From the IMG/VR virus record IMGVR_UViG_3300017987_000016: 62,350 bases of DNA; one strand, given 5' to 3'. The stretch is from a virus. Positions 18,028 to 50,751 of this stretch are shown here, in pieces. Position 1 is the stretch's first letter. The number at the start of each line of letters is the position of its first letter. Position numbers and translations under genes: made by a program. The notes below the pieces were generated by a model. It ran no database searches and was not told the DNA's origin. It saw only the letters and a list, made by a program, of their open reading frames with translations.

Positions 18028-20562
18028 TTAATCTGTCGGATCGACTTCTATGCCGTAAATTTCCCAATATGACTTATTCTTAACCTCATCCCTGATTTCG
18101 AGTATAAAATCCATACACCGTTTCCGCAACGCAACACCTTTCGTGGTTTCAACAATACTCGCTGGCAGTGGTTTTGATCTTACGGGTATATCATCAACAC
18201 CATCCACATACATATTCACTCTCAGGGGAACGGCTGATTTATACTTAACCCTTAAAATTCTCACCGGCTCTTTTCTTTTGGATGAGACACGAAATCGTTT
18301 CGATTTATACCCTGCAATAACACTCTCCCGTGCGAACGTAGAATATAATGTCTGCGTGTTTTCGTTATAGATTAAAGCCCGTCCGTCAAAATCTTTCGAT
18401 GCAATGTCGATATAATGGGATGTCAGTTTCTGCTCCCAGGCTTGTTCGACAATATCGAAAGACCATACTTCCCCATTTGGAAATTGGAATATAAACTCAT
18501 TCTCAGCCTCATCGTAAATTCCGATTATGTTCGGCATCCCATTTTCAGGATCGAGAGCGAGATACTTATCGTTGATCGGTTCTGAAATACGATTTTCAAT
18601 CAAAGGCGTTTCGTCCGCAGCAGCCACCAAGTTGGCGTCAACCACATAAATCCCGTCATAGGAAGGCATGGCAATCCGATGACCTGATTGAGCCAAACCA
18701 TTAGGAGCCAGATTCCCCCTGTTGAATCGTGCCTCCTTAAATCCCCATGTACTCATATCAATCAAATCCACGATATCCATTTTGAATATGGCATGTTTTT
18801 TAAATATCATTGGGGATCCGAAAGATGAGCCAATACCCGTGATCGGACCGCCCTCTCTGTCCAAACAGGCTTTGACTCTCGATACCGGGATAGCATCATA
18901 ACATTCTGGATAAGAAAAGGCTCCCCAATCATCATGCGATTCATTCTCTCCACCAGGGTCGAGCACGATATCGGCTAAACACAAAAGTTCTTTAACTATA
19001 ACTGCATACTGGCCATTAACATTAATCGAAGGCTCACCCTGATAAGGATGTTCTTCTCCATCAGTGAGGTTATTATCAAAAAAATTGTAAGTGGCAATCC
19101 CGCCTGACCAATTAATCAGATAACTCCCGTCTATCATCTTAGCCAATTTCCACGAAACATCAGATTTGGTAGACCAATGGACATAACACAAAAAAGCATG
19201 GCCGTAATTTTCAAGAATCATGTTTGAACTATTATCTAAAAGAATTACAGAACCTTCATATCCTTCTCCCGTAGAATCATAGTCTAATATTATCGCTACA
19301 TCTTCACCGGCAAAACCACCTCCTTCATCGGTACCGCCTTCCGCTACCTTAACATCATCTTCATAAAGTCGCCAATCACAATTCCAAAAACCATAGTCTA
19401 CGGTTTCACCTCCCACATCTGCCCAAGCCGTCGTCGTTGCAACTAATGTCGTTGAATTCAATTGAGAAGCTATCGTGCCAATCGTCCAATAGCCAGGCCC
19501 AACCTTATGAGCTAAATGAACTTTATACGTATGTGACTCTAAATCCAATTCGTACTCTAAATCGGGAAGATAGACAACCTGATCCCCTGTATAGGCTCCG
19601 TCAGTTCCCGTGTGTGCTTTTCCTGTATCTCTCGTTAATTCAACGGTTTGAATTCTATAATACGTGCCATTAATAGAATCCGAACGATAAACATTTATCC
19701 CCGTAATTCTTTTATTGAAAGAGGTTGCTATCATCGAAAAAGCCAATCTCACATGGAATTCGGATGTGCTTTTTTCAACAATAATTGGATCCTCGGATAA
19801 AAGACTTTCCTGCACACCGTCATATAGAAAGGCAAGTTTATAATACCAATATTCTTTGCTTCCCGTATCGCCAGATTCCGCAGCAGCAAACGCCCCGCCT
19901 GCAATAGCAGAACCAGACGCACTCAGAGAAGCTATATTGGGTTTGGTAAGCTGAGAATTATATGCGAAAAATCCCTTATCATAATCTGTTCCTTCTATAT
20001 AAAGTCCATCGAAGTAATCCCTGTCAATATACCCGATCCAAATGGGCTGCCCACCAGATACATTTCCAGGCAGAATTCTCAGCATGTTATCCGCATGAAT
20101 GATAGGATTCTTTGCATATTTGTGATAAAACGTTCCCAGAGTATTTTTCAAAAGCGTGTTGATGTTTTTCCACTCCCCATCGTCCCAATATTTCAGGGTA
20201 ACAACGTTTGTAGAAGAGTTAATGATCACAACAATCGTCACATGATCCACCCCATCAGTCAGAAAATCCGATAAATTAGGATGAACAAACACAAACATAT
20301 TCTTTATAGACTCGCCAATTTCAGTGTCATAAGCACTCTCTACCCAATATTCGTGATCCGTCCATGCCTTAGAGTCATCCCAATTCCCACTTTCGATCAC
20401 GTCCATAATGGCCAATCGATCCCCAAACCCGAACGTTTTCATCAATTTCCCATATTTGGCCTTCATATTCTGTAGAGAACTTGGGGTTTCCTTCGGGATG
20501 TCCCCAAGATCAGCATTTGAAATCGGGCCTGTGAATTGATCTATTTCAATGTATTTCGACAT
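18028..20562 (-). CDS. Large virion structural protein (844 aa), tail tube/nozzle candidate
   Basis: Size and position between fibre genes and internal proteins; no signal peptide. Confidence 0.4.
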   Translation of the reverse strand: MSKYIEIDQFTGPISNADLGDIPKETPSSLQNMKAKYGKLMKTFGFGDRLAIMDVIESGNWDDSKAWTDHEYWVESAYDTEIGESIKNMFVFVHPNLSDFLTDGVDHVTIVVIINSSTNVVTLKYWDDGEWKNINTLLKNTLGTFYHKYAKNPIIHADNMLRILPGNVSGGQPIWIGYIDRDYFDGLYIEGTDYDKGFFAYNSQLTKPNIASLSASGSAIAGGAFAAAESGDTGSKEYWYYKLAFLYDGVQESLLSEDPIIVEKSTSEFHVRLAFSMIATSFNKRITGINVYRSDSINGTYYRIQTVELTRDTGKAHTGTDGAYTGDQVVYLPDLEYELDLESHTYKVHLAHKVGPGYWTIGTIASQLNSTTLVATTTAWADVGGETVDYGFWNCDWRLYEDDVKVAEGGTDEGGGFAGEDVAIILDYDSTGEGYEGSVILLDNSSNMILENYGHAFLCYVHWSTKSDVSWKLAKMIDGSYLINWSGGIATYNFFDNNLTDGEEHPYQGEPSINVNGQYAVIVKELLCLADIVLDPGGENESHDDWGAFSYPECYDAIPVSRVKACLDREGGPITGIGSSFGSPMIFKKHAIFKMDIVDLIDMSTWGFKEARFNRGNLAPNGLAQSGHRIAMPSYDGIYVVDANLVAAADETPLIENRISEPINDKYLALDPENGMPNIIGIYDEAENEFIFQFPNGEVWSFDIVEQAWEQKLTSHYIDIASKDFDGRALIYNENTQTLYSTFARESVIAGYKSKRFRVSSKRKEPVRILRVKYKSAVPLRVNMYVDGVDDIPVRSKPLPASIVETTKGVALRKRCMDFILEIRDEVKNKSYWEIYGIEVDPTD

Positions 20563-22124
20563 TAAAGAGCTTCTCCCAGTGAATTGGCCACGTATTTAAA
20601 ACCGATCATAATTACATAAGCATCTGATGTACAAGTATCGCTTGCATGATCTCCGTCACGCATCACATCCAGGGTTATGTAATAATCCGTTGCGCCGATG
20701 TCAGAAGCCGATATAGTCCAAGTGTCGATATTCAAACCCTTAGACGTAGATGAACTTGTTTTGGTGGAAGACGAAGAAGAACCCGCTATGGATGTATCTT
20801 CATTTTCAGTCCGTGCAAGATGCGTCACAACCCATTGAACATCATCCGATATATTATTAGTAGCCCAAAAAAGAACTACTGTAGCGTCTGCGCTTGTATC
20901 CATGTTTTCAGGTATGCCAATATTTGCACGGATCGCCTTATCTGCACCGTCGGCAAATGACCAACCTTTACCATTCCCCCAATTAGAGAGAGTGGCTGCC
21001 ATGGTGCTATTTTCTCTTAACTCATTCGCCCCAAGCCATATTGTTTGATAAATTCTGGCCGTACCATGTAAGCTTAATTCGCCATCGGCTGCAAACTGAG
21101 CATAATTTGTAGTCCCACCGTCGCCTATTTGCGTATTATCGCTGGCATCAACATTTACCACACCATTATCAAGTTGTGTATCTGAGTTCTGTGTGTGTTT
21201 TTTAGTGATCGCATCTGACGCATCCGAAACAGATAATCCACTATCATCGGGTAAACCGTTTGCGTCCGCATCCATCAGATTATTCTCTGTGATCGTAGAT
21301 GTATGATCCGAACTTGAGTCTATGGCGTGGCTTCTGTCGTGTAATTTAGAATGGTCATAACTTGATTCATGGGTTGAAACAGCACCGGCATCTTCATAAT
21401 CGGAATCGGATTTACCTGAATCTTTTGGTAGTCCGTTTGCGTCAAAGGATACGAAATTATCCTCTGTTGCACCCGAAACTCCATTATGATCGTCGGTTCC
21501 GTCAATATCATGTTTTCTGTCATGTTTCTTCGAAACAGCATCTTCTATGTCAGTGCCAGCAGAAGTAATGTCCACGTGTGCATTTACGGGTATTAAGTTA
21601 AGAGCATCGCTTACATTGGCCGAATCGGTAACATCGGCATTCGCTTCGATCCCATCGAGCTTTGCCCCATCTACTGAAATGTCTCTGTCGTCAATTAATA
21701 TCAAATTATCAACAGTTAAAGTATCTTGGAGATTTCCCCCACAGATCAACGTATCTGAAGTATTGACCATTAAAACAGTATCGGTATTTTGAGTGTGTCT
21801 TTTAGAAACCGCATCTTCAATATTGGCGCCAGAAGATGTGATGTCTGAATGTGCGTTTGCCGTTATCTCCTCATGGGCATCTTCAACATCTTCGATGAAG
21901 TTTTCAACCTGAGTACCCTTCGTTAATTCCCACCAAACTACTTTGCCATCAATTGCGGCAATCTGATACCTTCGGCTTTTATAAATACATAGGGTGACAC
22001 TATTCTTACTGAGTTCGGAAACCCGCACCGATGCTGGATTTTTCCGAAGCAATCGATATTTGATCTGCCCGAAAGAAGAAGTGGCAAAAATGAGAAAAAT
22101 GAGTATTTTAATTAGTCTTTTCAT
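20562..22124 (-). CDS. Tail fibre-like protein with signal peptide and internal His/Asp-rich repeats
   Basis: MKRLIKILIFLIFATSSFGQ; repeats NAHSDITSSGANIEDAVSKRHTQNTD / NAHVDITSAGTDIEDAVSKKHDRKHD / SDAITKKHTQNSD. Confidence 0.5.
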   Translation of the reverse strand: MKRLIKILIFLIFATSSFGQIKYRLLRKNPASVRVSELSKNSVTLCIYKSRRYQIAAIDGKVVWWELTKGTQVENFIEDVEDAHEEITANAHSDITSSGANIEDAVSKRHTQNTDTVLMVNTSDTLICGGNLQDTLTVDNLILIDDRDISVDGAKLDGIEANADVTDSANVSDALNLIPVNAHVDITSAGTDIEDAVSKKHDRKHDIDGTDDHNGVSGATEDNFVSFDANGLPKDSGKSDSDYEDAGAVSTHESSYDHSKLHDRSHAIDSSSDHTSTITENNLMDADANGLPDDSGLSVSDASDAITKKHTQNSDTQLDNGVVNVDASDNTQIGDGGTTNYAQFAADGELSLHGTARIYQTIWLGANELRENSTMAATLSNWGNGKGWSFADGADKAIRANIGIPENMDTSADATVVLFWATNNISDDVQWVVTHLARTENEDTSIAGSSSSSTKTSSSTSKGLNIDTWTISASDIGATDYYITLDVMRDGDHASDTCTSDAYVIMIGFKYVANSLGEAL

Positions 22125-22695: not shown

Positions 22696-24609
22696 CTATT
22701 CTTCCTTGCTTTTTTCCCAACGATATTCTGCACCAGAAGCTCCGTCAGCAGGTCTTACAACGATCAACGAATCATTCCTTGCATCCCACTTCGGAACATC
22801 TTGTGCGTCGGCAGCAGAACCAAGAAACGTGATGGTATAACTATCTGTGGATTTTGCCCCTGGAATTAAAACCGTATCTTTTACTGCCGTACCACTAAAT
22901 GAATCTCTTCCAGACGCCGCATTCGTCAGCGAACTCAATACAGCACCGGATATATTTGTTATATAATTATTTTTGACATAATTACTATCAGACCCAGCGA
23001 TTCCCTTTATAAAATTGGTTGGGACATCACTGGAGTCACTCCCAACCATGTTATTAGTAAATACATTTCCATCCCCAGCACCGGAAAAGTATATAACATG
23101 GGGATATGATGACCCACTGCTCGATGCAACATCTTGCAGAAAGTTAAGAGCGATAAGGTTATCATCAGCGCTTTCATCTAATCGGATTTCATAAACAGAA
23201 CTCCCTCCAAGTAAATTTCCACCAATTATATTATCAGCAGCTGATGTCCGAATACCATAAGAATCACCCCAGGCCAGATTCCCCCAGACAATAGACTTTC
23301 CACCATTTGGCCTGATTGATCTGGAATCCTTCAAAACATTGAATGATATGATCGTTCCAGGACCGGAGCTAATTATAGCATCTTTGCACCCATAGAATGT
23401 ATTGACTGTAATCGTCCCCCAATCCCAATATGCTTCAATGCCAGTATCTAAATTATTAAAATGGTTCCCGTATATAGAATTCCCTCTCATGGTCGTACTG
23501 TTTGTACCTGAAATCCCATGCGATCCGCCAATATTCCCATCCCCTTCAAATGTATTGCCCTCAACAACATTTCCTTGACAGGGATTAGAACCATCTGTAC
23601 TAAAAATTATTCCTGCAATATCATAGCCGAGATTGTCAGGGATATTCTTGAAATAGGACTTAGAAATCTTATTGTAATAAGTATCTATAAAGATTGCACT
23701 TGAATTGACTTCCTGCTCTCTTGTCAATGTAAAAGTACATCCAATGACTTTGTTAGACCTTCCTGAATGCAGCCTTAAATGCACATAATCGATCGAGTCC
23801 CACCTACAATTTTCAAAATACCAGTACCACGGACTATCAATATTTATTCCATAATGCTCTGAACCCTTGAAAGCACAATTCTTCATAGTAATGCAGTGTG
23901 TCGCAGCTGCATCATCATCATGAATGAGATTAAAATTGGTTTTATCGTGTTTTGGGTGATTTCTATTCCCATCCCATGTCAATCCCTCAAACGTACAACT
24001 ATCGCCATTAATAAAGCAAAAATAGATTGAATAAGCCGAATCACATTCGCATTTCAATGTCGTAAAATGGCCCACGTACTTCACTCCACTGCTATCAAAC
24101 GTGATCTTCTTCATCATATACGTAACCCAGGGCTTGTAGCTCATGTGTCGGCAGATATTCGCATCTATTGCACGTTCATGATTGGTCTCATTGTCCGTGG
24201 ACCCATCACCAACGACTCCCCACCATTCCGGGAAACACACTTCATTGCTGATTTTGCCCGTAATAGTTAAATTGGGGCCAAATATCTGATACCTTCCTGC
24301 ATTGATGTAGCAATTATCTAAATGCAGTGTTTTGGCATTACCCGGAGAGATTTTACCACCCATGGGGATATCCAAAGTAACATTAGCATCTACCGTATCG
24401 TCGGTTGAAAGACCAATCACATCGGGGATGAGTAGGGTTGCAGTATCGGACGCAGCTTTCGTCAAAGCAGCTCCGAGGCTATCGAAACCGTCTACGGTAT
24501 AATAAGCATTATATTGATAGGCGTATTTAGTCTCTTTACCTCTATATGATTGACCAAAAAGTATCGAGGCAAATAATAGTGTAAATATATATATTCCAAA
24601 TCGTTTCAT
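22696..24609 (-). CDS. Right-handed beta-helix (pectate-lyase-like) tailspike / depolymerase candidate with signal peptide
   Basis: MKRFGIYIFTLLFASILFGQ; FPEWWGVVGDGSTDNETNHERAIDA (Pectate_lyase_3-like); many N/G-rich repeats such as GNSIYGNHFNN. Confidence 0.55.
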   Translation of the reverse strand: MKRFGIYIFTLLFASILFGQSYRGKETKYAYQYNAYYTVDGFDSLGAALTKAASDTATLLIPDVIGLSTDDTVDANVTLDIPMGGKISPGNAKTLHLDNCYINAGRYQIFGPNLTITGKISNEVCFPEWWGVVGDGSTDNETNHERAIDANICRHMSYKPWVTYMMKKITFDSSGVKYVGHFTTLKCECDSAYSIYFCFINGDSCTFEGLTWDGNRNHPKHDKTNFNLIHDDDAAATHCITMKNCAFKGSEHYGINIDSPWYWYFENCRWDSIDYVHLRLHSGRSNKVIGCTFTLTREQEVNSSAIFIDTYYNKISKSYFKNIPDNLGYDIAGIIFSTDGSNPCQGNVVEGNTFEGDGNIGGSHGISGTNSTTMRGNSIYGNHFNNLDTGIEAYWDWGTITVNTFYGCKDAIISSGPGTIISFNVLKDSRSIRPNGGKSIVWGNLAWGDSYGIRTSAADNIIGGNLLGGSSVYEIRLDESADDNLIALNFLQDVASSSGSSYPHVIYFSGAGDGNVFTNNMVGSDSSDVPTNFIKGIAGSDSNYVKNNYITNISGAVLSSLTNAASGRDSFSGTAVKDTVLIPGAKSTDSYTITFLGSAADAQDVPKWDARNDSLIVVRPADGASGAEYRWEKSKEE

Positions 24610-27600
24610 TTTATTTTCTCCTCAAGAGCTTCGATACGTTTCTGTTGATCTTGAATGACACCAATCAAGTAGGTTATCATCCGTTTCTGGTGCCAGTCTT
24701 TAGGATTTCCTTCACTGTCATAGGCTGTGATAAGTTCTGGCAACACCCTAGCCACGTCCTCGGCAACCAATCCATAATCGTGCATTCCGGCGACCGCACT
24801 TTTTTCATTCCAGTCAAATTCAACGGGACAAAGCATGTTTATTTTGATTGGGTCTAACTTCCATCCCTTAATATTGTTTTTATAGATTCTACTGGAAGCA
24901 TCCTCAACAATTTCATCTGTATTGGCTACTCTATACAATGTTTGTCCAGTTCCCGTGTCAAGCCCTTGCATAAAAACATCACCATCAGAAGCATTTACTA
25001 TAAGCGCACTATCTTCATTCGCTGATTGAACACGGAAATCCACATCACCTCCATTACCATTAATCTCGAAGTAGTCTTGGGAGTCATTCTCTAACATATC
25101 GAACATTAATACGTCGCCAGTTTTTAGATAAAATCGGTCATTCGCAAATGCAAAGTACGTATCGGGGTCGCCATTATGCTTAACTGTCTGGTCAAAACCA
25201 ACCTCTGCACCAATGACCTGAAATGGATAATCAGGGTTTGCCGTACAAACACCAAGCCAACCTTTCGCTGTTACGACAACACTACTATCCCCAGGGTTGC
25301 CGTCGTCATCGTTGATAGCTTGGAATAAATTGCCAGTCGTTTTGTTACCATCAATCTTTAACCCAAGGGCACTGCCAGACGTGTTAATATCAACTGGACC
25401 GATAAAATCAGGAGCCGTACTAAATACTATATTGGTCGAAACAGTACCCGTCGTACCCGTTGCATTACTCAAATAATTAAGTTGTGTTCTGGTTGTGGAC
25501 AAATCATCAATGACCTCTAATTCAGCCTCATTTATAACGGCGTCGCCTATGGCAATTTGAGTTGTAAACAGTGGGCTGTTAAGCGGTGCCAAACTGGCCG
25601 TTGAAGTTGGAAAAGTATATGTCTGCGCGGCGGTTCCAGAGAATGTATATCCGGCATAGGCAGGAGCCGTTGTAACCCCACCACTTAAAAGAGGCTGTCC
25701 GGCGGCCACATCAGCAAGTTTACCATAAGTCTCCGCGGCAGTGGCATATAACAAGTCCCCGACTGCGTGAGATTGTCCGGCGAGTGATGTTAAGTTTGCG
25801 TCTAATCCTTGCCCGCCGATTTGAGTCAATACATTTGCCGGTGTTTTAAATTCCAAAGCAGAGTTATCGGAATTGGAGCCCAGGATATAATTATTCCCAC
25901 CCGAAGTAACAACGCCATAGGTGTTGTCGGCTGTCGTTTCGAGGATAGAAACGTCTGCTTCTGTCAACCCTGCAATACTCGCCAGGGCTGCATGAGCATC
26001 CTGAAAAGCAGTTGCTTCCTCTCCATCCAATAGATCGGCGTTTAAATTTGTGTTGACTGTGGTAGACGTTATTGAGAAAGGTGAGGTTCCAACTGGTACT
26101 CCACTAACCCATTGACCCAACTTATTTACTACGGAAGAACTATCTCCAGCGACACCGTCATCATCATTTATAAATTCTGCAAGATTGCCAGTTGTCTTGT
26201 TTCCGTCAACAGATATACCATTCGCACTACCATATAGAGTAAGAGCTAAATTACCGGACGAGGAAAGGCTCATTCTCAATTGTGTGTCATTATACCACCC
26301 GAAAAGCTTCTTTCCAGCACCAAAGGGAGACCATGTTGTAGCCGTCTTTTCGCCAGCAGAAAACTTCATAACATAATCGGTAGGCGTGGCTTGGGTAGAT
26401 GCGCCAGCCAACCATAGACCTTCTACATCGGCTGCCTTAGTAAGACCAATTAATCTTAACCCCCCATCGCTACCATCATTAATACTGAAATTAGCATAGG
26501 CATCAGAAGAACTCAAACCGGTCATACCATGATTGAGACCATCTTTTCTAAATTCTACCTCTTCAGACGACTCGGCAACATAAGTCGCCGTGTCATCCTG
26601 ACTCCAATAGGTGTTCACCCCACTAAGTGCAGTTCGTAAGGCAGAAGCCGAATCTGTTAGCGCGCTTCGGGTCGCCACATGACCTGTAGCATGGCTGGTT
26701 GAATCGGCAATGTTTACTTTTTTATTTATTTCTGTCCAATGATTAGAAGCCGTGTCCGTACCAGCAGAACGTGTCATATAATGATTTACTGCATGAGATG
26801 TAGAATCTACTTTGTTAACTTTGGAATCAATCTGCGTCTGCACGTCCGAGGTTACAGAGGACAAATAGCCTAATTCGGTCGCGGATACATTCGTTTCATA
26901 GCTCTTGGCAGAAAAATCTCCGGTAGCCTGGACTTTCCCGTCTGTCTTTATTATCAAAGACTGATTTCCAACCTTAATGGGGTTATCTGATACTATTCGA
27001 GTCGTGTCTCCATCGTCATACCAATAAGAAGAGTCTGCCTTGGAGTCATCAGTAACCATGAATCTCTTACTGTACACAACCTGCCATCTCTTATCGGGGT
27101 GTGCAGAATCATGACTCCCATCATCAACGGGTTCAATAGAACCTTTAAACCCAATAGAACCTCCCTTCCCTTTCATTACATCTCCAACCCGGGTCGTGTC
27201 ATCTGCATCGGAGAAATAATCTGATAAAACAGTATCGGCAGTTGCATTCCCGTTAGCTTCTAAATCACCATCTACATAAAAATTATTAGATAGTTCAAAT
27301 CTACTATTCCCGTCGTCCCACTTGAAGCTTTCAGCCGTAAAACTCCCATCATCGGCAAAATAGAGAATTGCATCATGGTCGCCCGTCGTGGTATCACCAA
27401 TAGTAACTGTCTGAAGCGTGTAGACCCCTCCAGATGTATCCACCCAAAATGCCTGAGTTCCCTCATCTTTTATTTCGATAAAATATTTTGACCTCGAAGC
27501 ATCAATCCTAATCGTATCATTGTCCGCAACCCAGGCCGTCGCTGAATCGACTATTCCGATTTCAATCTGATAATAGTATTCATTGATCGTCACACTGTCG

Positions 27601-27818
27601 GCCGTAAGTTCGGTCGCATGAAGGCTATCTACTTGAAGTAAAACAGCGTAAAGATCGGCCACATGAAGGCTATCTATCCCCACGATATAACCAAATCCCT
27701 TTATCCATATCGTGTCGTTCGTGGCATAGACAAACTTATTCCCAAGTCTTCCCTGACCCATGGCCGACTGACCGAACAAAAGGATAAGGATTGCTAAAAA
27801 AATGAATATCTTCTTCAT
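24606..27818 (-). CDS. Tail fibre (1070 aa) with C-terminal peptidase S74 intramolecular-chaperone domain and N-terminal signal peptide
   Basis: C-terminus SSRIYKNNIKGW...PVEFDWNEKS...HDYGLVAEDVARVLPELI...IGVIQDQQKRIEALEEKIK; N-terminus MKKIFIFLAILILLFGQSAMGQ. Confidence 0.7.
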   Translation of the reverse strand: MKKIFIFLAILILLFGQSAMGQGRLGNKFVYATNDTIWIKGFGYIVGIDSLHVADLYAVLLQVDSLHATELTADSVTINEYYYQIEIGIVDSATAWVADNDTIRIDASRSKYFIEIKDEGTQAFWVDTSGGVYTLQTVTIGDTTTGDHDAILYFADDGSFTAESFKWDDGNSRFELSNNFYVDGDLEANGNATADTVLSDYFSDADDTTRVGDVMKGKGGSIGFKGSIEPVDDGSHDSAHPDKRWQVVYSKRFMVTDDSKADSSYWYDDGDTTRIVSDNPIKVGNQSLIIKTDGKVQATGDFSAKSYETNVSATELGYLSSVTSDVQTQIDSKVNKVDSTSHAVNHYMTRSAGTDTASNHWTEINKKVNIADSTSHATGHVATRSALTDSASALRTALSGVNTYWSQDDTATYVAESSEEVEFRKDGLNHGMTGLSSSDAYANFSINDGSDGGLRLIGLTKAADVEGLWLAGASTQATPTDYVMKFSAGEKTATTWSPFGAGKKLFGWYNDTQLRMSLSSSGNLALTLYGSANGISVDGNKTTGNLAEFINDDDGVAGDSSSVVNKLGQWVSGVPVGTSPFSITSTTVNTNLNADLLDGEEATAFQDAHAALASIAGLTEADVSILETTADNTYGVVTSGGNNYILGSNSDNSALEFKTPANVLTQIGGQGLDANLTSLAGQSHAVGDLLYATAAETYGKLADVAAGQPLLSGGVTTAPAYAGYTFSGTAAQTYTFPTSTASLAPLNSPLFTTQIAIGDAVINEAELEVIDDLSTTRTQLNYLSNATGTTGTVSTNIVFSTAPDFIGPVDINTSGSALGLKIDGNKTTGNLFQAINDDDGNPGDSSVVVTAKGWLGVCTANPDYPFQVIGAEVGFDQTVKHNGDPDTYFAFANDRFYLKTGDVLMFDMLENDSQDYFEINGNGGDVDFRVQSANEDSALIVNASDGDVFMQGLDTGTGQTLYRVANTDEIVEDASSRIYKNNIKGWKLDPIKINMLCPVEFDWNEKSAVAGMHDYGLVAEDVARVLPELITAYDSEGNPKDWHQKRMITYLIGVIQDQQKRIEALEEKIK

Positions 27819-27830
27819 GGCTTTTCCTTT

Positions 27831-27851
27831 AATAATTATGTACTTGACAAA
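27831..27851. repeat. Left copy of a perfect 21-bp inverted repeat (13 nt upstream of the fibre ATG)
   Basis: aataattatgtacttgacaaa; exact reverse complement at 28355..28375. Confidence 0.95.
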
Positions 27852-27863
27852 CCACCTTGTTTT

Positions 27864-28331
27864 TTATTCCGTTGTTAAATAATAATTGGGAACAGATTTT
27901 AGTTCATAGGCTATGATACCATAAATAATTTTAAGCATTGTAGATTGTTCAAAAGGCCCATCGGGTAAATCTCGGCCCCTTTTCCATGTTTCCCCTGGTC
28001 GTTCCATGCGATTGCTTACAGTACACCCTATATAGCCTTTGTCGTTATTTGGTTTTCTGATACAAATATTGTATCGACTGCAATGAGTATATAAGAAAAC
28101 ACGTAGTCGTTCTTCTTTTGTACCTTGATCATTAATGCCATAAATAATAGATTTGCCATTTCTCCAACTGATATTTTGTATCCATTTGTAAAATTCTGGA
28201 TATGCGGTCTCGACAAACCTCTTGTCTACCAATTTGACCTTGTGGTCTCTTTCAAACATTTCACGAAAATGCTTTTTTCCATCCACGACATATTCCACGG
28301 GGTTTTCTGCTGATACTTTTTTTTCAGACAT
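27864..28331 (-). CDS. Hypothetical cytoplasmic protein (155 aa) bracketed by the 21-bp inverted repeats
   Basis: ORF track; RBS ACAGGAGGACACCTATC before the ATG; no signal peptide, unlike its neighbours. Confidence 0.55.
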   Translation of the reverse strand: MSEKKVSAENPVEYVVDGKKHFREMFERDHKVKLVDKRFVETAYPEFYKWIQNISWRNGKSIIYGINDQGTKEERLRVFLYTHCSRYNICIRKPNNDKGYIGCTVSNRMERPGETWKRGRDLPDGPFEQSTMLKIIYGIIAYELKSVPNYYLTTE

Positions 28332-28354
28332 GATAGGTGTCCTCCTGTTATGGA

Positions 28355-28375
28355 TTTGTCAAGTACATAATTATT
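28355..28375. repeat. Right copy of the perfect 21-bp inverted repeat (overlaps the stop codon of 28371..28709)
   Basis: tttgtcaagtacataattatt. Confidence 0.95.
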
Positions 28376-28709
28376 TGTCTTCTTTAATTCTCGATGATCT
28401 CTTAATTCCCTTCTTGATTTTCCCCATAACGTTCTTCGTGTGCCATTTATCATTTTTCCAATATGTTATAACTGCTTTTTTTGCTTTGGAATAAACAGTG
28501 GTATCGCTAAGACTGACCATAAAAATGGGTTCATCAAATTCATAAGTAATTTTCGCATCAGACTCATGCCTGTTCCCCCTGGGTGTGCCATGATACTCCT
28601 CTCCGTTAATCTCCATACAACTGAATTCCACCACGAAATAGACCTTTTTCTTCCCCTGACCGAACAGAGGTATGGCTATTAAAAGAACAAGACATAGAAT
28701 TCTTTTCAT
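28371..28709 (-). CDS. Small secreted protein (112 aa) with signal peptide
   Basis: ATG 28709 in an ATGA overlap with the upstream stop; MKRILCLVLLIAIPLFGQ-GKK. Confidence 0.5.
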   Translation of the reverse strand: MKRILCLVLLIAIPLFGQGKKKVYFVVEFSCMEINGEEYHGTPRGNRHESDAKITYEFDEPIFMVSLSDTTVYSKAKKAVITYWKNDKWHTKNVMGKIKKGIKRSSRIKEDK

Positions 28710-29200
28710 CTTTGATTCCCCTGTGGCCAAATACGGATGTTGTGATAAGAGGTGTCCTCATCATCGTCTGAACCGCCCTTCTTCAGAACTATCCGAATGC
28801 CGTCGTATACTCTGAAATTGACAAATAAAGGATCAATGGGATAAGTGTTAAAAGCATAAGCAGTCGTCAGCGAGATTGTTGCCACTCTTACAGAATCGGC
28901 ATACTCTGTGCGATAATTTGTCAATCCGGTAAGTAATTTTCTTGTTATCCCATAGGCTTCAACAGTCAATGTGTCCGTCGCAGACCCAACCTTGGCAAGA
29001 ATAGAATAATCTACCGGCCCTATATGCCGGTTCAGCGAAGTCGAGTCATTGTTCATGTTGAAATAGAAATCCCGAACTACCCTGGTTTGGGTAAACAGCG
29101 TATCCATCACCATGTATTGAGGACAATCCACGAAATTCTGTCCCAATAAAGGCATTGCTATTATCATGAATAACACAACCACATAGTTTCTCATCTTCAA
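28706..29200 (-). CDS. Secreted protein (164 aa) with signal peptide
   Basis: AAGGAGATTTGAAG before the ATG; MKMRNYVVVLFMIIAMPLLGQ-NFV. Confidence 0.5.
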   Translation of the reverse strand: MKMRNYVVVLFMIIAMPLLGQNFVDCPQYMVMDTLFTQTRVVRDFYFNMNNDSTSLNRHIGPVDYSILAKVGSATDTLTVEAYGITRKLLTGLTNYRTEYADSVRVATISLTTAYAFNTYPIDPLFVNFRVYDGIRIVLKKGGSDDDEDTSYHNIRIWPQGNQR

Positions 29201-29206
29201 ATCTCC

Positions 29207-29869
29207 TTATTCTGAAAAATAACCTTCAATGTTATCGACGTTATAAAACATTTCCTCTTCAGTGCGGCCCAAAACATCCTCAACAATTTTCTGATTTGCT
29301 TTCATGATGTTATATTTCTTTGTTGCTGCTTGAATTTCTTTTTCCCATCTGTTTTCATAAATGGTAGCCTGATCATATTTTTTTTCCATTTCAAATACTG
29401 TAAAAATGACATAATAAGCTAAACTCCTGTGTTCAACTACAGGAATGATCGGGCTGTCCGCAGTAGCAGTTTGATAATAGTGATACCATCGCCCCATATA
29501 ACCATGACTCGATGGCTTGGGGATCAATCTATATGTAGTTCCTTCAATCTGGTAAGCTGCCGGTATTCCGGTTTTCAACACACCAGATGAACGATAAATT
29601 TCAACTCCACTTTTTTCATGAACGGGTTCTATTTTATTCCCTTCCCACTCAAGCTTGATAAATTCATAGCCAGTAAATCCCGTCGGGAGATCATAGGTGT
29701 CCGAAAGAGTACCTTCGTTAAGGTCTTCCGTGCTTACTTTATCATGTTTCCAAAGGCAATGGGTCTTTTCAATGAATTCATTCTCAGCTTCCCGAAGCAG
29801 ACTAATAAAGTCATAACCCAACACACCCGTTTTTCTCGTAACGTTGTTTTTTAATGTTGCAAAAGTCAT
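29207..29869 (-). CDS. Virion structural protein (220 aa), adaptor / tail-tubular-A-like candidate
   Basis: MTFATLKNNVTRKTGVLGYDFISLLREAENEF... N-terminus and position after the capsid genes. Confidence 0.35.
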   Translation of the reverse strand: MTFATLKNNVTRKTGVLGYDFISLLREAENEFIEKTHCLWKHDKVSTEDLNEGTLSDTYDLPTGFTGYEFIKLEWEGNKIEPVHEKSGVEIYRSSGVLKTGIPAAYQIEGTTYRLIPKPSSHGYMGRWYHYYQTATADSPIIPVVEHRSLAYYVIFTVFEMEKKYDQATIYENRWEKEIQAATKKYNIMKANQKIVEDVLGRTEEEMFYNVDNIEGYFSE

Positions 29870-29925: not shown

Positions 29926-31005
29926 TTAGTAAGTTGCGACACCAATCCCACCACCCGCGGCTGCCGCCGGCTGGTTCGACCAGACAACATCATTATCAGC
30001 CTCTGCATCGATCTTGGTAAAACCGACCGTAAGGCAATCCAGCATACCGATATTGCCCGTATTGGGCTTTGTTCCGATAAACCAGGAGGCACAGATATTG
30101 GCATGAGTATTGGCTCTCCATACCGCAAAAACGCATCTCTTGAAAATATCAATGCCGTTCAGAGTAGCAGCGCCGGAAGTCTCAAACCCGCCGAATGCAG
30201 TACCGGCGGACACTTGCTGTAGAAAGGTGCAATCAGTAAAGAAATTCTGTGCCGTTGCACCCGAGAGATGAATCCAGCAAGCTGCATTGTCCCCAGCATC
30301 ATAAGAACTCGACCCGAAAAAACAGTTGTTGAAAACGGTTTCATCACCACTGACCCTGATCTCTAAGTCAGACTTATAGGCATTGGCAGACTGCGGAGAA
30401 CAGTTGAAATGACAGTTTATAAACGCATTCCTTGGGCCGGATAACTGAACGGCCGACACTTTAGCAGTGGCACTCACAGGATCACCGTCGTTTTCAGGGC
30501 TGTTATAGAAATCAATATTGATAAACGTGTTGTTCTGGCCCGTCAAATAGATAAGGGTAACCAGTGAATCCGCAGCACTCGTGTGCGTTACGCGCGCTCT
30601 GCCGAAATAAGCATTGGGAGCTGCAAGACCAATAACGGTAATGCCATATTTGGCCCATGCTATTCGTGTCGTCATTGTCGATGAATTACTGGAACCCGAA
30701 ACAGCGCCAGAAACCAATATGATACCATCACCAGCACCCGAAGTACAAGCATTATAACCATAAGTCAGGCTCGCGAACGCATTATCATGGCATTTGCCAT
30801 CCAAAGTAGAAGAATCAGTACCATTGGCAGGGTCAACCCAAAACCATGTGCCCCCGATCTTCGGCAATTGCATCCCTTGAAAATCACTTGCGGTCAACTT
30901 CGCTGCATCCATCCATCCGACATATTGCCGAACTGAAGCTGGATGTTGGGCAAACAGAGGGATCGTAATCATAAGAATAAAGATGATTGGAAGAAATCTC
31001 TTCAT
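29926..31005 (-). CDS. Parallel beta-helix (pectin-lyase-fold) protein with signal peptide
   Basis: ATG 31005 after AAGGAGTATCTGATT; MKRFLPIIFILMITIPLFAQ; repeated NxF.NC.F rungs (NTFINIDFYN, NAFINCHFNC, TVFNNCFFGS, QNFFTDCTF). Confidence 0.5.
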   Translation of the reverse strand: MKRFLPIIFILMITIPLFAQHPASVRQYVGWMDAAKLTASDFQGMQLPKIGGTWFWVDPANGTDSSTLDGKCHDNAFASLTYGYNACTSGAGDGIILVSGAVSGSSNSSTMTTRIAWAKYGITVIGLAAPNAYFGRARVTHTSAADSLVTLIYLTGQNNTFINIDFYNSPENDGDPVSATAKVSAVQLSGPRNAFINCHFNCSPQSANAYKSDLEIRVSGDETVFNNCFFGSSSYDAGDNAACWIHLSGATAQNFFTDCTFLQQVSAGTAFGGFETSGAATLNGIDIFKRCVFAVWRANTHANICASWFIGTKPNTGNIGMLDCLTVGFTKIDAEADNDVVWSNQPAAAAGGGIGVATY

Positions 31006-31070
31006 AATCAGATACTCCTTATTTAAGTAACAGGCAAGCATTTAAAACCTGCCTGTTACGATTTTGATTA

Positions 31071-34649: not shown

Positions 34650-36611
34650 TCATCCATTAACTGCTTCCGCACTTTGTTGATTCCCCATCATTGCCCCACC
34701 ATTAGCTATATACATGGCTATACCTTTTTTCAGTCTATCTGGAAGTGCTTGGTATAGCGGAGATGTTAATATTTCTGGAATCTGAAAAATTATTTGAACA
34801 ACCTGCCCGAATAATTGTTCTTCCTCCTGACTCCCTGGCTGGACATTATCAAATGCACCTGCGATTTGTTCAAACTGCCCCAAAAGTTCTTCTTTCTGTG
34901 CCTGCTCTTGGCCTTGTTGCTGAATCTTTGCAGCATTGTCTTTGGCTCTTTGTTTATCCGTTATGGCGGTCGCTGCATCGATAAGTTGTTCAACCGCTAT
35001 CGGAGGATAACCGAACACTGAATTGCATTCCCTGTTTACAAGAATCATTTCCTCGAATTCAGCCTGGGGATCCAATGGAAGCATTGAAAGCAAACTTATC
35101 TTAACTTTTATGTCCACTTCAGGATAAAGTTTTGTATTAAATAGAGTATAGTTTAAATTCCCCTCTTCGTCATCTTTTTTCTGAGTTACGATTTCAGGAT
35201 AATAATTCCGAATGATAAAAGCCCAATGTTCATACAGTTTTCGATAAAGATTATGAAACTCTAAAACCTTCGGTTGTATCCTGCCTGTAGCCTGTGAAAT
35301 CAATGCCTGTGTCTTTACCCCACTGTCACCCGATACAGATTCTCCCCTCAAAGCATCGTTAATGCCGGACTTTCTATCTCGATCCTGATCGTTGTACTGT
35401 AGAAATTGTTGTATGTACGCAGGCATGGACGGGGGATCGATATTTTTAACAGCATCGGGGATTTCTGACGTATACACTTTGTTGGGATCGTTGTTTACAA
35501 CGTCGGTAACTGACGGGTGTTTCAATTTTTGGGGATTGCCAGTAGCTCTTACATTGTCATTGATATTGGATATAATCTGATTCTTTACATGAATATGCGT
35601 TTCAAGGTTCTTGCCGTCACTTATTCCCCAAATATCTCCCCTGCGTTTGAAATTAGCACCCATGAAAAACGGAAGTCTCGGATAAGCGTTCGGCACTGTT
35701 TTTACGACTTTGTTTTCATGGTTTCTGATTATGGTCTCAATTTTTCCGTACTTGTACTTGGTTCTTTGGGCGTTCTCCTTAACAACATTACCCTCATCGT
35801 CTTTTTTAACCATGCCCTCATCATCATAAACATCTCTTTCGTATTCTTCTTCTTCGTCTGATTTTGAGTACATTTGAATTACAAGAGCAAAACCCTTTCT
35901 CTCCGCAGAACCCATCGCCTGTTTTGTGGCTTCCCGCTTTTGATTGTAATACCTGAAAGTTCCGTCAAAATCAAAATCTCCTTCTGGAGGAACCTCGATA
36001 CCATATTCTTTTTTAATATCTTCTACGTCTTTGTAATCAGCATAAACAAACCATGAATCATAACAATCTTCAATTGTGCCCTTCATTGGGTCGGGTAAAC
36101 AACATGCAAGGTCTATCACTTCATTTACTATGACTCCTTTCTTGCTGTCGTAATATGACTTAACACAATAGTTTCCCCTTATCCCATAATCGCGGTAAGC
36201 TTCCTGTGCTTTTGTCTGCATATCTGATTTTATAAATACATCTATCAACTGCTTTTGAAGTTTGTCTGACCATTCACCCAACCCGTTAAGATACTCTCTG
36301 AAAGCCTCATCACCCTTCTCTTCAAGAGACTGCAGTACTTCAGGCGGTGGCTCAACCTCCACGTCTGGCCTGGGAGCCCGGGATGTAACGATGGGCAACA
36401 TCACTTCTACTGTTTCAAAAAGCTCGTTTGACGTGTGTCTTGTTAAGTATGACGACCTCGACGATCCCTCCCAATACCTGTTATCATAATATTTCTCCAT
36501 CTTGTTCCAGGAATTGGGAAGTTTCCTGTATTCAATCGTTTTCTTCGCATACTCGAAGTTGTTCATTATCTTTTCAAAACGACTTGCTTCAATTTTATCT
36601 TTTTTTGCCAT
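34650..36611 (-). CDS. Portal protein candidate (653 aa)
   Basis: Size and position downstream of terL and upstream of scaffold/capsid. Confidence 0.6.
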   Translation of the reverse strand: MAKKDKIEASRFEKIMNNFEYAKKTIEYRKLPNSWNKMEKYYDNRYWEGSSRSSYLTRHTSNELFETVEVMLPIVTSRAPRPDVEVEPPPEVLQSLEEKGDEAFREYLNGLGEWSDKLQKQLIDVFIKSDMQTKAQEAYRDYGIRGNYCVKSYYDSKKGVIVNEVIDLACCLPDPMKGTIEDCYDSWFVYADYKDVEDIKKEYGIEVPPEGDFDFDGTFRYYNQKREATKQAMGSAERKGFALVIQMYSKSDEEEEYERDVYDDEGMVKKDDEGNVVKENAQRTKYKYGKIETIIRNHENKVVKTVPNAYPRLPFFMGANFKRRGDIWGISDGKNLETHIHVKNQIISNINDNVRATGNPQKLKHPSVTDVVNNDPNKVYTSEIPDAVKNIDPPSMPAYIQQFLQYNDQDRDRKSGINDALRGESVSGDSGVKTQALISQATGRIQPKVLEFHNLYRKLYEHWAFIIRNYYPEIVTQKKDDEEGNLNYTLFNTKLYPEVDIKVKISLLSMLPLDPQAEFEEMILVNRECNSVFGYPPIAVEQLIDAATAITDKQRAKDNAAKIQQQGQEQAQKEELLGQFEQIAGAFDNVQPGSQEEEQLFGQVVQIIFQIPEILTSPLYQALPDRLKKGIAMYIANGGAMMGNQQSAEAVNG

Positions 36612-37630: not shown

Positions 37631-39349
37631 TCATGTATTAAGCCAGCCAACACTATCCGGATCAATCGGGCTGTCTTTCACTTCGGGAACGTAGTCTTTG
37701 CTCCTGACTCGTTCCCATTCTTTTTCTTCTTCGGTCTTCGGTTTCTCTGGTATTTTGGCAAATGCATCCGCACAAACCCCGTACCTTACAACGTCGGGAA
37801 AATCTTTGTATTTCTGGACAATGGTTCCCTCACCTGATGCTTTTTCCTCCAATTGTTTCCCCTTCAATCTTGCACGAATATAATGAGTTAAACCGTTCCA
37901 GGTATGATAACAGGTATTCCAAATCACTAAACCTGGCTTATCATCCTCTAATAACTCCAATGCCCTGTTGACTCGCTTATGACCGTATGCAAGTTCTGTT
38001 TCTGTGGTGCTCTTGTAGGACTTCAAGAATATAAAATCATGCCCGGCTCTCCGGCCTCCGTCAAGATATAGTTCTGCAAAGGTCTTTTTGCCCCTTAACT
38101 GCCAGCCAAAATGACGATCCAGAATACGGGTAAACTGCATAAATCGCTTTTTATCCTCGAAATGGTTGTACTTCTTCTCAAATTCCAACCAAAGTTCAAT
38201 TTCTTGGTCGATGGTATATGTCTTTTTCATCTCCCAAAAAGGTCTGTCAACCTCGTAAGGGCACTCACCGAATACAATCTTACGTCCGTTCGGACATATT
38301 GCCATCCAAATAGCTACCGAAGGTCTCGAGTCGTGCGGGTCTACAATGTGTAAAATATGTGAATAGTCAGGTATGGGATAATCAGCAGGGGAAACAAGAT
38401 GTTTGGCTTTATCAAGCATCGGATGAATCATGCCTGAAAAGTACATAAACTCGCCGTAAACCCTTGCCTCTCGTTCCTCTGCGTCATAACCTTTTACCAT
38501 ATCGTCGACAATATCCGGTTCCAGGTGTCCTCGTATGCCTCTTTTTTGACAGGCATCGTAAACCGTGGCTGTCAAATGATAATAACCTGGAATCCCGTCA
38601 TCAGCAGCCCGTGTGACTTCGTCTAAAATATAGGGCGGACAGTACAACGGTGTCATGGGCATTAAAACGATACAACCTTTACGTCTGCGGGACTTTATGG
38701 CCTTCCAAATGCCCTCAGGGGCCGGTTCGTCCAGTACAATAATCCCTACAGTAGACGACTCAAACTCTCCCGGGTCCTGATTGTAAGTCTTAAAATACCA
38801 AGTCCAGCCGTTAGGAAACTGTATCTTGGAAATGACTCTCTTACCTTCTTTGGTCTCTGTGTATTCTCTGCCTATATGTAGCTGTTTCTTAACGATTTCC
38901 TCGAGCATGGGCTCCACTGTTTCGGCTATCGCGTCCGGTCTTGAACAGTACCATATTTTCTTCGGAAGCGGAAAATTTTGAAAAATCGGATAATCAAACC
39001 ATCCATTCTGCGGACCGTAAATGAAGTTTAGAAGGATGTGTAGGGTTGTAGTGGTCTTTCCGACACCGTTGGCATAAGTGCACAGTATTACTGGGATTTT
39101 TGTCTCTTCCAGGCTCTTAGCTACGGTCTTGATATACTTTTCTGCGGGCCCGTTGGCACAGTAGAATTTTAGCGGATCAAGAAGAACCCCTGCGTAAAAT
39201 TCCTTTTTCTGCTCCGCTGTATCTAATTTTTCTGCAATAGCTTCCGGTTGCGTAGATAAAAAGCTAAGCACCAGAAATACCCCCAACACTTTCAGCCAAT
39301 TCAACCGCTCTCTCCAAAACACTGTTGATTTTTCCAATGATTTCCTCAT
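37631..39349 (-). CDS. terL: Terminase large subunit
   Basis: Walker A CTYANGVGKTTTTLH, Walker B-like GIIVLDEPAPE, C-terminal nuclease-size domain; the true start may be the GTG near 39270 because 39349 overlaps terS by 86 nt. Confidence 0.85.
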   Translation of the reverse strand: MRKSLEKSTVFWRERLNWLKVLGVFLVLSFLSTQPEAIAEKLDTAEQKKEFYAGVLLDPLKFYCANGPAEKYIKTVAKSLEETKIPVILCTYANGVGKTTTTLHILLNFIYGPQNGWFDYPIFQNFPLPKKIWYCSRPDAIAETVEPMLEEIVKKQLHIGREYTETKEGKRVISKIQFPNGWTWYFKTYNQDPGEFESSTVGIIVLDEPAPEGIWKAIKSRRRKGCIVLMPMTPLYCPPYILDEVTRAADDGIPGYYHLTATVYDACQKRGIRGHLEPDIVDDMVKGYDAEEREARVYGEFMYFSGMIHPMLDKAKHLVSPADYPIPDYSHILHIVDPHDSRPSVAIWMAICPNGRKIVFGECPYEVDRPFWEMKKTYTIDQEIELWLEFEKKYNHFEDKKRFMQFTRILDRHFGWQLRGKKTFAELYLDGGRRAGHDFIFLKSYKSTTETELAYGHKRVNRALELLEDDKPGLVIWNTCYHTWNGLTHYIRARLKGKQLEEKASGEGTIVQKYKDFPDVVRYGVCADAFAKIPEKPKTEEEKEWERVRSKDYVPEVKDSPIDPDSVGWLNT

Positions 39350-49890: not shown

Positions 49891-50751
49891 CTATTCAGCT
49901 ACGTAATCCACCGACGTCGGATCTGATTCATTGAACGAATAATCATACGCTGATACACCGATGATATATCTGATGCCCCTGTTGATCCGTGTATTCCATT
50001 CGGTCACGTTGGCAACGTCGATACTTGTATAAAACTCTCCAGGCCAAAGTCCTAAATGAGTGCGATAGCCTGCCAGGTCTTCCTCGGTGTTTGGGTTCCA
50101 CTTGACTTTAATTCCCGCAGTTCCCCCAGGAGTAACATCGCCAACCGGCACGTCAAGTTCCGTATCCTCAACAGCCCCAAGCGGTACAGTCAATGTATCC
50201 TGCCCGAAAAGTAGTTGAACCGTCAAATTTGCGTAATTGTCGCTTTTATGAACAACAGATATTGGCAATATATCCCCGCTTACGAGAAGAATATCCGTTT
50301 CCGCTCTTTGGCATAGAAATGGTGGAATGTTGCCGTCATTTGTTCCTCCACAAAGAATAAATCCGTTGTCTATATTGGCTCTAATTTGGTCAAACTTTAA
50401 CCCTGAGAATATAATATGTCCGAGTGTCCGGTTGCTCATGTTGTGAACGGACATGAAAAACCAGTTATCTCCTTGATTGTCGGGATCGATGCAGAGCCTT
50501 ACAGTTCCGGCTGTTGAATCGGGAGCAGTTGTATCGGGCGGGGCTTCAGTTGTGTCTGTGTACGTAACTGTGACCTGCAAAACAAGCGAGTCCCAGGACG
50601 TGTTAAAAAGATAGGTTGTGTTTTCCTCTGTAAACGCAGAGTCCACCACGGAGCCCGTTCGGTGTGATAATGTGTCGGTTTTAATTGTCTGTCCTGCCAG
50701 CATCGCCGGAATGAGGGCGATGAATGCGAGTCGTGCGATTGTGCGTTTCAT
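49891..50751 (-). CDS. Secreted protein with signal peptide and C-terminal fibronectin type III-like domain
   Basis: MKRTIARLAFIALIPAMLAGQ; IKVKWNPNTEEDLAGYRTHLG...YIIGVSAYDYSFNESDPTS. Confidence 0.55.
   Translation of the reverse strand: MKRTIARLAFIALIPAMLAGQTIKTDTLSHRTGSVVDSAFTEENTTYLFNTSWDSLVLQVTVTYTDTTEAPPDTTAPDSTAGTVRLCIDPDNQGDNWFFMSVHNMSNRTLGHIIFSGLKFDQIRANIDNGFILCGGTNDGNIPPFLCQRAETDILLVSGDILPISVVHKSDNYANLTVQLLFGQDTLTVPLGAVEDTELDVPVGDVTPGGTAGIKVKWNPNTEEDLAGYRTHLGLWPGEFYTSIDVANVTEWNTRINRGIRYIIGVSAYDYSFNESDPTSVDYVAE

Follow-up and report, generated by a model that had tools for sequence, protein, structure and literature searches.

An exact 21-bp inverted repeat beside a phage tail-fibre gene as the likely ends of a single-gene mobile cassette

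Introduction

In the 62,350-nucleotide viral sequence IMGVR_UViG_3300017987_000016 from IMG/VR (this whole stretch of DNA is called the window here), a perfect 21-bp inverted repeat encloses one small open reading frame (ORF) of 155 amino acids, ORF155, directly upstream of a tail-fibre-like gene. What is such a repeat doing around a single gene at this place? A preceding description made from the sequence alone, referred to below as the sequence-only reading, had offered three answers: an invertible segment of the Mu G or P1 C kind, the terminal inverted repeats of an inserted cassette, and a long-range dsRNA stem in the late transcript, as a site of RNase III processing or of regulation. From the analysis presented here we consider that a single-gene mobile cassette of 545 bp ends in the two 21-bp arms and that these arms would also pair as an RNA helix in the late transcript, a reading to which we assign a probability of about 0.6.

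The inverted repeat and the cassette in the window

The repeat was recovered where the sequence-only reading had placed it, around the 155-aa ORF and upstream of the fibre gene; it is exact over 21 of 21 nt, with arms at 27831-27851 and 28355-28375 and 503 nt in between. The plus strand of 27831-27851 reads AATAATTATGTACTTGACAAA, and 28355-28375 is its exact reverse complement. These two arms are the sole matches in the window when up to three mismatches are allowed, and they form its longest inverted repeat with arms within 3 kb. The earlier statement that the repeat lies far beyond chance holds, since only 0.01 arm matches are expected in a dinucleotide-shuffled window and none of 100 shuffles contained two or more. 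We also scored bracketing repeats for the 112 window ORFs of at least 80 aa; ORF155 reached 21, with a runner-up at 10.5 and a median of 7, and it is the only one of the 112 bracketed by a repeat of this kind.

All genes around the cassette lie on the minus strand. In the coding direction the order is a gene of 119 or 112 aa, the 5' arm, a leader, ORF155, a spacer, the 3' arm, 12 nt and the fibre gene. The whole cassette occupies 27831..28375 (545 bp, minus strand), as delimited by the repeat ends, by the homology limits seen in relatives and by G+C content. Repeat search and sequence reading place its 5' terminal inverted repeat, AATAATTATGTACTTGACAAA on the coding strand, at 28355..28375; direct reading gives a leader of 23 nt (28332..28354) between the end of this arm and the ORF155 ATG, with an AGGAGG Shine-Dalgarno sequence at 28346-28341, 9 nt before that ATG. 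ORF155 itself (27864..28331), characterized by phmmer, alignment and an AlphaFold (AF2) model, is separated by a directly read spacer of 12 nt (27852..27863) from the 3' terminal inverted repeat, TTTGTCAAGTACATAATTATT on the coding strand, found at 27831..27851 in the same way as the 5' one. From the outer end of this 3' arm to the fibre ATG at 27818 there are 12 nt.

Both neighbouring genes are on the same strand as the cassette. The upstream one appears in the ORF list at 28371..28730 as a protein of 119 aa starting at a TTG and bearing a signal peptide; its start is probably the ATG at 28709, giving 112 aa. As the sequence-only reading had observed, the right arm stands in the leader of ORF155 and overlaps the stop codon of this gene: the TAA at 28373-28371 lies inside the 5' arm, and the cassette arm supplies the last two nucleotides of the gene together with its stop codon. 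The downstream tail-fibre-like gene (24606..27818, 1070 aa) is outside the cassette and was recognized by a weak C-terminal Peptidase_S74 match and by PHROG 1786, the N-terminus of its product being nearly without homologues.

The G+C content of the cassette is 35-37%, versus 43-48% in its neighbours, and its strong Shine-Dalgarno sequence differs from theirs; both features support a foreign origin. The stretch around its ribosome-binding site and start codon, GGAGGACAyCTATCATGTCT, is common to the window and to a 60%-identical homologue on locus L002, where the 39 nt available upstream of the homologue are too short for an arm call. The sequences that border the cassette, and that would adjoin after a precise excision, are GAAGACA and AAAGGAAAAGCC. 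As a separate observation, the 8-mer GGACACCT (coding strand) occurs three times within 1.4 kb (28327-28342, 28742-28757 and 29687-29702), one of the copies being part of the ORF155 ribosome-binding region.

A phage-restricted family of ORF155 proteins

An exhaustive phmmer search with ORF155 returned 973 representatives of protein clusters built at 50% identity (E<1e-3), 187 of them at E<1e-10, and nearly all were 110-200 aa long. An alignment of 41 members (A1) shows a conserved C-terminal core, GY(L/I)GC...R.GE.W.RG.DL.DG...E, with Y100, G102, R108, R118, G119, D121, D124, G125, I135 and E143 invariant. The AF2 model (mean predicted local distance difference test score, pLDDT, of 89.4) shows helices at the N-terminus, then a sheet of five strands and one more helix at the C-terminus, and the invariant residues gather in its strand-loop-strand region 100-125.

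Searching the 155-aa protein by hidden Markov model and structure, which the sequence-only reading had put forward as a check, yielded no significant match and brought to light a large unannotated family. Neither ORF155 nor any of the 41 members had a significant match in Pfam, PHROGs, NCBIfam or PADLOC; the PADLOC "HEase" match found in one of the 41 (E=0.003) is not significant. A profile search of the PDB with the family gave nothing significant, and Foldseek against the PDB and BFVD gave best E values of 0.17-0.25 with template-modelling (TM) scores below 0.3. Longer fusion proteins carried no informative partner domains, and no description of the family was found in the annotation libraries or in open-access literature text.

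About 90 family loci were located in IMG/VR, on very diverse uncultivated phages, jumbo phages included. Among the genomes of 185,579 species there were only 9 family loci, all on contigs of metagenome-assembled genomes (MAGs), and tblastn with two family members against GenBank phages gave no match. These searches show that the cassette belongs to a widespread, unannotated, phage-restricted family. One further protein, P0004 (1877 aa), gave 35 separate partial matches to ORF155 residues ~50-84 along with scattered Pfam hits, which is probably a repetitive or low-complexity artefact. On locus L001 (6830-7327), a 38%-identical member has no arms; its neighbours are small genes of early type, with one for an Rv2179c-like exonuclease adjoining it; the family therefore also exists outside repeat-bounded cassettes.

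Bracketing repeats as a feature of the family

We examined 80 IMG/VR family loci for genes whose flanks are inverted repeats of each other, with duplicates removed. An exact bracketing repeat of at least 10 nt was found for 17 of the 68 unique family genes, and of at least 12 nt for 8 of the 68. At the same two thresholds, mismatched-flank pairings gave 2.2% and 0%, shuffled flanks 1.8% and 0.2%, and the other ORFs of the same loci 3.9% and 1.1%. With ungapped extension the arms measured 12-33 nt with 0-6 mismatches, and the null's 99th percentile was exceeded by 15-16 of the ~70 genes; two further repeat-bearing elements were picked up in another scan. Overall, some quarter of the family genes on viral contigs have such arms, versus ~1% in controls.

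The spacing of these elements resembles that of the window cassette. From the end of the 5' arm to the start codon there are 13-26 nt in the family (23 in the window), from the stop codon to the 3' arm 5-19 nt (12 in the window), and the whole unit measures 426-671 bp in relatives (545 in the window). The arms are present only twice in each locus, and a search for the arm as a dispersed regulatory motif found no extra copies in the window or the loci. All 18 of the elements point the same way as the gene downstream, many of them ending 0-20 nt from the next start codon, and duplicate assemblies have identical flanks.

Two details of individual elements are recorded here. In L013 (1722-1754) the 3' arm is tandemly duplicated, AGTCCCACCGTATA occurring twice. 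Between the 5' arm and the start codon, a leader motif, GGTATAAAAA(T), is conserved across subfamilies (L017, L035, L027, L046, L004, L020, L057, L032, L041, L039, L055 and L163); it is not present in the window cassette.

The arms as limits of the mobile unit

Among 16 repeat-bearing loci, only the pair L017/L035 has flanking genes in common on both sides. Loci L020, L057 and L032 encode core proteins that are 62-82% identical, and their flanking proteins are not common; at the nucleotide level their homology starts at the outer edge of the 5' arm (TAGTTCTTTGAAATCTGCGGG...) and stops at the outer edge of the 3' arm (...CCCGCAGATTTTAGAGAGCTA), the sequences beyond the arms being unrelated. The homology limits likewise coincide with the arm edges in L013, L021, L045 and L042, which form the subfamily nearest to the window, and L039 and L163 have arms that are alike and flanks that are not.

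A reciprocal comparison was provided by L004 and L032, which are collinear with 75-79% nucleotide identity, a level at which the junctions are resolved more coarsely than to one base, and which carry their cassettes at two different places. At the site of the L004 cassette, L032 has 158 nt with no cassette; the L032 cassette directly follows the large-terminase gene, where L004 shows a spacer of 19 nt. We compared 31 further relatives of the L032/L004 terminase: in eight of them, representing six distinct sequences, the junction is a spacer of 18-35 nt, and others have there inserts of 311-682 nt made of unrelated small genes, none of them a family member. These unrelated inserts have no bracketing repeats, their scores of 6-8.5 being at the null level. 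Since the repeats are unmatched in the other inserts of this hotspot, they are tied to the gene family and not to the site. Taken over the loci L085-L116, the post-terminase junction is an insertion hotspot of one phage group, with inserts of 311-737 nt, and only that of L032 is a family cassette.

These comparisons show that arms and gene form a unit whose position differs from phage to phage and which some relatives have and others do not. The proposal of terminal inverted repeats around an inserted cassette is thus borne out by homology limits that coincide with the arms, by the varied contexts, by the reciprocal sites and by the low G+C content. Comparison with related genomes, also suggested in the sequence-only reading, succeeded to this extent for L004 and L032; for the phage of the window itself no relatives were found.

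Two side observations concern the borders of individual elements. In L045 a 13-nt direct repeat, GAAAATGACTATA (~3850-3862 / 4301-4313), abuts the 5' arm and recurs 10 nt past the 3' arm, and it is the only candidate for a long target duplication. About 90 nt upstream of the L004 cassette (~1340-1445) there is a partial arm-like copy, AAGTATATTTAA, with an inverted repeat GGCGAGTG...CACTCGCC; the arm-like copy may be the remnant of an earlier insertion.

Complementarity of the arms and a possible RNA helix

We aligned the arm cores of ten elements in a fixed register of 18 pairs. Standard pairs filled 95.6% of the cells, and in 14 of the 18 pairs (43 cells) both sides had changed. The covariation score was 0.77, compared with 0.24 in shuffles (0 of 500 reached 0.77) and no more than 0.18 when the register was shifted by 1-3 columns. 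The inner GTCA/TGAC alone is invariant, and an inner helix covaries as well (CGGT/ACC versus CGCT/AGCG). Judged by these alignments, it is complementarity and not sequence that the arms keep, and the pattern of changes shows that the match between the ends is upheld by selection or by concerted evolution.

Some strand asymmetry was also found. Transition mismatches over all arms comprised, on the sense strand, 19 G·U and 5 A·C, counts that are phylogenetically non-independent and come to a ratio of ~13:5 when related elements are collapsed. In the ten-element alignment there were 14 G·U cells in the sense reading versus 3 in the antisense one, with 95.6% versus 89.4% of cells paired. In 12 of 17 loci the duplex of the sense strand was the stabler one (p=0.03), the mean difference being 3.9 kcal/mol; only this within-locus comparison of sense and antisense energies was used, as across loci the null was dominated by differences in phage G+C. 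We take the G·U skew as a hint of an RNA role, not as its demonstration.

Folding of the window transcript in silico retained the 21-bp helix and 4 further pairs in both the minimum-free-energy and the centroid structure; the spacer segment GGUGG is predicted to be able to lengthen the RNA stem by these 4 pairs. An Rfam search of 26-30 kb gave nothing relevant. No sigma-70-like promoter or intrinsic terminator was detected within or next to 27831-28375 by a consensus scan that did not cover Bacteroidota-type promoters; the arms of the window do contain TTGACA, and a sigma-70 promoter there was rejected as no usable -10 element accompanies it. On these models a long-range RNA helix is plausible as an added role of the arms.

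The proposed mode of action and its alternatives

The reading that we favour may be outlined as follows. The cassette would have entered the narrow space that separates the tail-fibre gene from a small tail-region gene. It would be transcribed by read-through within the late operon, as we infer from its having neither a promoter nor a terminator of its own, and would be translated from its own Shine-Dalgarno sequence. In the transcript the arms would pair into a helix of 21-25 bp, closing the ORF into a loop. A helix of this length suits RNase III, and it could serve as a clamp, with RNase III-type processing, insulation or stabilisation of the inserted message as its possible effects, and so allow a selfish gene to be carried within an essential operon, between two tail genes. 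On DNA, the same arms would delimit the unit that moves.

Several observations speak against this reading. No relative of the window phage was present in the searched collections, so its own empty site was not seen, and for that reason the mobility of the window cassette is extrapolated from other members of the family. Only about a quarter of the family genes have detectable arms, and a scan of the fetched loci and the window met one copy only in each. The flanks of the 18 elements contain no consistent target-site duplication; the family is not basic (median isoelectric point 6.3) and is unlike any known transposase or nuclease. In one subfamily (L020, L057) a sigma-70-like TTGAAA-17/18-TATAAA overlaps the 5' arm, and because of this overlap the cassette's own transcript would start without that arm; some of the cassettes may carry a promoter of their own and give nearly leaderless messages. 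To the phylogenetic non-independence of the G·U counts it must be added that the G·U excess could come from strand-biased mutation.

Some of these points bear equally on an autonomous mini-transposon, in which the arms would be recognized by protein, ORF155 would be a new transposase or end-binding nuclease, and RNA pairing would be incidental. The discrete, nucleotide-precise ends in three unrelated contexts, the reciprocal occupied and empty sites, and the restriction of the arms to the ORF155 family among the hotspot inserts all agree with it, as do the GTCA/TGAC core that is invariant at the inner arm end in one subfamily and the way the invariant Y, R, D, D and E fall together in a single loop region of the model, whose fold is predicted with confidence; there is also an analogue, the MPME elements treated below, that combines a small ORF with inverted repeats and makes no target duplication. 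Nevertheless, strictly compensated changes affect 14 of 18 arm positions while the proteins remain ~50% identical, a behaviour more like that of a helix, and ORF155 resembles no transposase, recombinase or nuclease in sequence or fold. The family is not basic, target-site duplications are missing, no locus has more than one copy, all insertions are co-oriented and ~75% of the family genes have no arms. We regard this mini-transposon, the main rival, as less probable, though well worth keeping in mind. The clamp and the transposon-end readings are not mutually exclusive, and we suggest, quite tentatively, that the ORF155 family may be a new class of mobility protein, of unseen fold, that acts on its own ends, with these ends doubling as a long-range RNA clamp that insulates the gene in essential late operons.

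The other explanations fare much worse. Inversion of the 503-bp segment by a recombinase, toggling the expression of ORF155 or of the fibre, is what a perfect 21-bp inverted repeat beside a fibre gene brings to mind, and the window does encode a tyrosine recombinase, while its apparent Bacteroidota host might supply trans-acting invertases. Yet this tyrosine recombinase is a typical integrase, encoded 24 kb from the segment, and no Resolvase-type invertase is found among the window ORFs; the segment contains one non-fibre ORF, with no alternative fibre exons and neither ORF nor promoter on its other strand; orientation relative to the downstream gene is the same in 18 of 18 elements, the flanks do not differ between duplicate assemblies, and arms and ORF move jointly to new contexts. 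The Mu G / P1 C interpretation of the sequence-only reading is accordingly abandoned as very improbable. An older intergenic hairpin with a 21-bp stem, into whose loop an unrelated gene landed, would fit the way the arms tightly abut the neighbouring genes, phage intergenic hairpins being common insertion points. It does not fit arms that are homologous between elements in unrelated contexts, or empty sites that are plain short spacers with no hairpin, and no close relative of the window phage was found in which the hairpin is intact and ORF155 missing; since the arms travel with the gene, a pre-existing hairpin split by insertion is ruled out but for a very slight residual chance. As to a chance match or an assembly artefact, such as a join in a k=21 de Bruijn graph, the arm length does equal a common assembler k-mer size, and an exact copy of the 21-mer occurs by chance in an unrelated bacterial metagenome gene. 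With 0.01 matches expected in the window, the same layout recurring around other arm sequences in about 20 independent assemblies, and an ORF that is intact, co-oriented and correctly spaced, we regard this explanation as negligible.

Comparison with known systems

The closest analogues of the cassette are the mycobacteriophage mobile elements MPME1 and MPME2, by resemblance and not by homology. These "ultra-small mobile genetic elements" (Sampson et al. 2009, as described in PMC3029335 and PMC4351075) measure ~440 bp, encode a 123-aa ORF, have left and right inverted repeats and have inserted independently in near-identical phages (PMC3029335, PMC4351075). They carry an unexplained 6-bp addition next to IR-L, the inverted repeat on the left, and make no target duplication (PMC3029335, PMC4351075), and their insertions occur in both orientations (PMC4351075).

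In common with them, the elements analysed here are phage-borne, of ~0.44-0.55 kb, with inverted repeats and a single small ORF (155 aa here versus 123 aa in MPME); they occupy different positions in closely related phages (shown here for L004/L032), show no consistent target-site duplication and encode a protein unlike known transposases; MPME insertions near tail genes are seen as well. In contrast, the family profile A1 aligned to BPs gp58 with an hhalign probability of only 0.3% (E 0.21), and no PHROG match was obtained for any of the 41 members. The arms are longer here (21 nt perfect, up to 33 nt in relatives) and are kept by compensatory change, 18 of 18 elements are co-oriented, and this family was not found in GenBank phages.

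A likeness also exists to IS1-like insertion sequences (IS) and to MITEs (miniature transposable elements with inverted repeats), which are discrete units with 20-30 bp terminal inverted repeats and presence/absence between relatives. Unlike IS, the elements described here have no DDE, HUH, serine or tyrosine transposase domain, no consistent target duplication and a single copy per locus, and unlike both groups their arm sequence is far less conserved than its pairing. A MITE was rejected because the cassette encodes a protein, and a phage moron because the consensus-based scan found no promoter or terminator.

The free-standing homing genes of T4-like phages (seg, mob) are likewise selfish single genes between conserved genes, present or absent among relatives and placed next to terminase and structural genes; the RNA hairpins of I-TevI and mobE reportedly keep expression in check within host operons. 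Homing genes are not known to have inverted repeats at their limits, and their hairpins are local and sequester the ribosome-binding site, whereas the helix proposed here would join the 5' and 3' ends across ~500 nt. With no HNH, GIY-YIG, LAGLIDADG, PD-(D/E)xK or EDxHD domain detected in the family, a recognisable homing endonuclease gene was rejected.

On the RNA side, the stems flanking 16S and 23S rRNA are long-range helices of ~20-26 bp processed by RNase III, and the predicted helix of 21-25 bp would similarly close an RNA loop through complementary flanks, with the difference that the loop here is a protein-coding message on a mobile cassette. With Mu G, P1 C and the Bacteroides invertons there is in common an inverted repeat of similar length beside a fibre gene; the arms, at 21 bp, are somewhat shorter than the gix and cix sites (inverted repeats of ~26-34 bp), and unlike in Mu G and P1 C there is here no invertase, no alternative coding capacity and no variation in orientation among the 18 elements.

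The host phage and other features of the window

By its gene content, the window is a temperate tailed phage or prophage, an SU10-like podophage. Among its genes are those for a portal and an adaptor of SU10 type, a large terminase, a gp3-like small terminase and a DNA methylase, together with one for a tyrosine integrase (2728-3747) that lies 24 kb from the cassette, at the element edge. No serine-recombinase or DDE-transposase domain was detected in the window ORFs scanned (about 70), in agreement with the earlier remark that a serine invertase is absent.

Many tail-region proteins, including the 1070-aa fibre protein, start with a hydrophobic signal-peptide-like segment ending in FGQ, LGQ, FAQ or MGQ. 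Such starts were noted, all on the minus strand, at 20562-22124, 22696-24609, 24606-27818, 28371-28709, 28706-29200, 29926-31041, 49891-50751 and 50748-51131. The endings resemble the "Q-rule" of Bacteroidota signal peptidases, which is odd for virion proteins, and this style hints at a Bacteroidota host, a phylum in which trans-acting invertases exist. ORF155 had been described as the only protein of its surroundings with no signal peptide; this is right for the immediate neighbours, while the SU10-type adaptor (29207-29869) has none either.

We looked widely for relatives of the window phage. No close relative was found among GenBank phages, IMG/VR, metagenome contigs or GTDB genomes, a megablast of the region against GenBank phages gave no match, and exact-protein look-ups with three window proteins gave no records. 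The 112-aa upstream protein forms a cluster by itself, and viral contigs yielded no relative of it; relatives sought through this protein, the fibre N-terminus and the adaptor amounted to none, or to one 60-residue match. The arm 21-mer was not found in viral contigs or genome contigs. In metagenomes it has one exact copy (L084, 2442-2470), inside a crotonase-like coding sequence with no family gene nearby, which we judge to be a chance match; the 8-mer TCCATAAC abuts this copy on the side opposite to that seen in the window.

The window also holds a second perfect inverted repeat, of 16 nt (AATACCTGTTATCATA, 36473-36488 / 37903-37918), which is borderline versus chance. Its arms are 1414 nt apart, one within the portal gene at its 5' end and one within the large-terminase gene at its 3' end, and three small ORFs lie between them.

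Concluding remarks

Beyond homing endonuclease genes and MPMEs, very few kinds of small selfish phage elements are known to us, and elements of this sort shape phage mosaicism. Two traits set this ultra-small element with its inverted-repeat ends apart: the fold of its protein has not been seen before, and its arms change in the manner of an RNA helix. The work defines a large family (973 clusters) that lies outside the cultured phages and annotation libraries searched, and the arm-gene-arm signature in DNA gives an annotation rule for a recurrent "hypothetical protein". For the window, it means that the repeat should not be read as a host-range switch of the fibre; more generally, the cassette family explains one class of insertions beside terminase and tail-fibre genes. 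With ~0.5 kb and one protein, the cassette is a compact test system that could reveal a new mobility enzyme or self-insulation at the RNA level, and, if the ORF155 family does act on its own ends, these cassettes would constitute a new superfamily, one of autonomous mobile elements that are ultra-small (0.43-0.67 kb) and confined to phage genomes.

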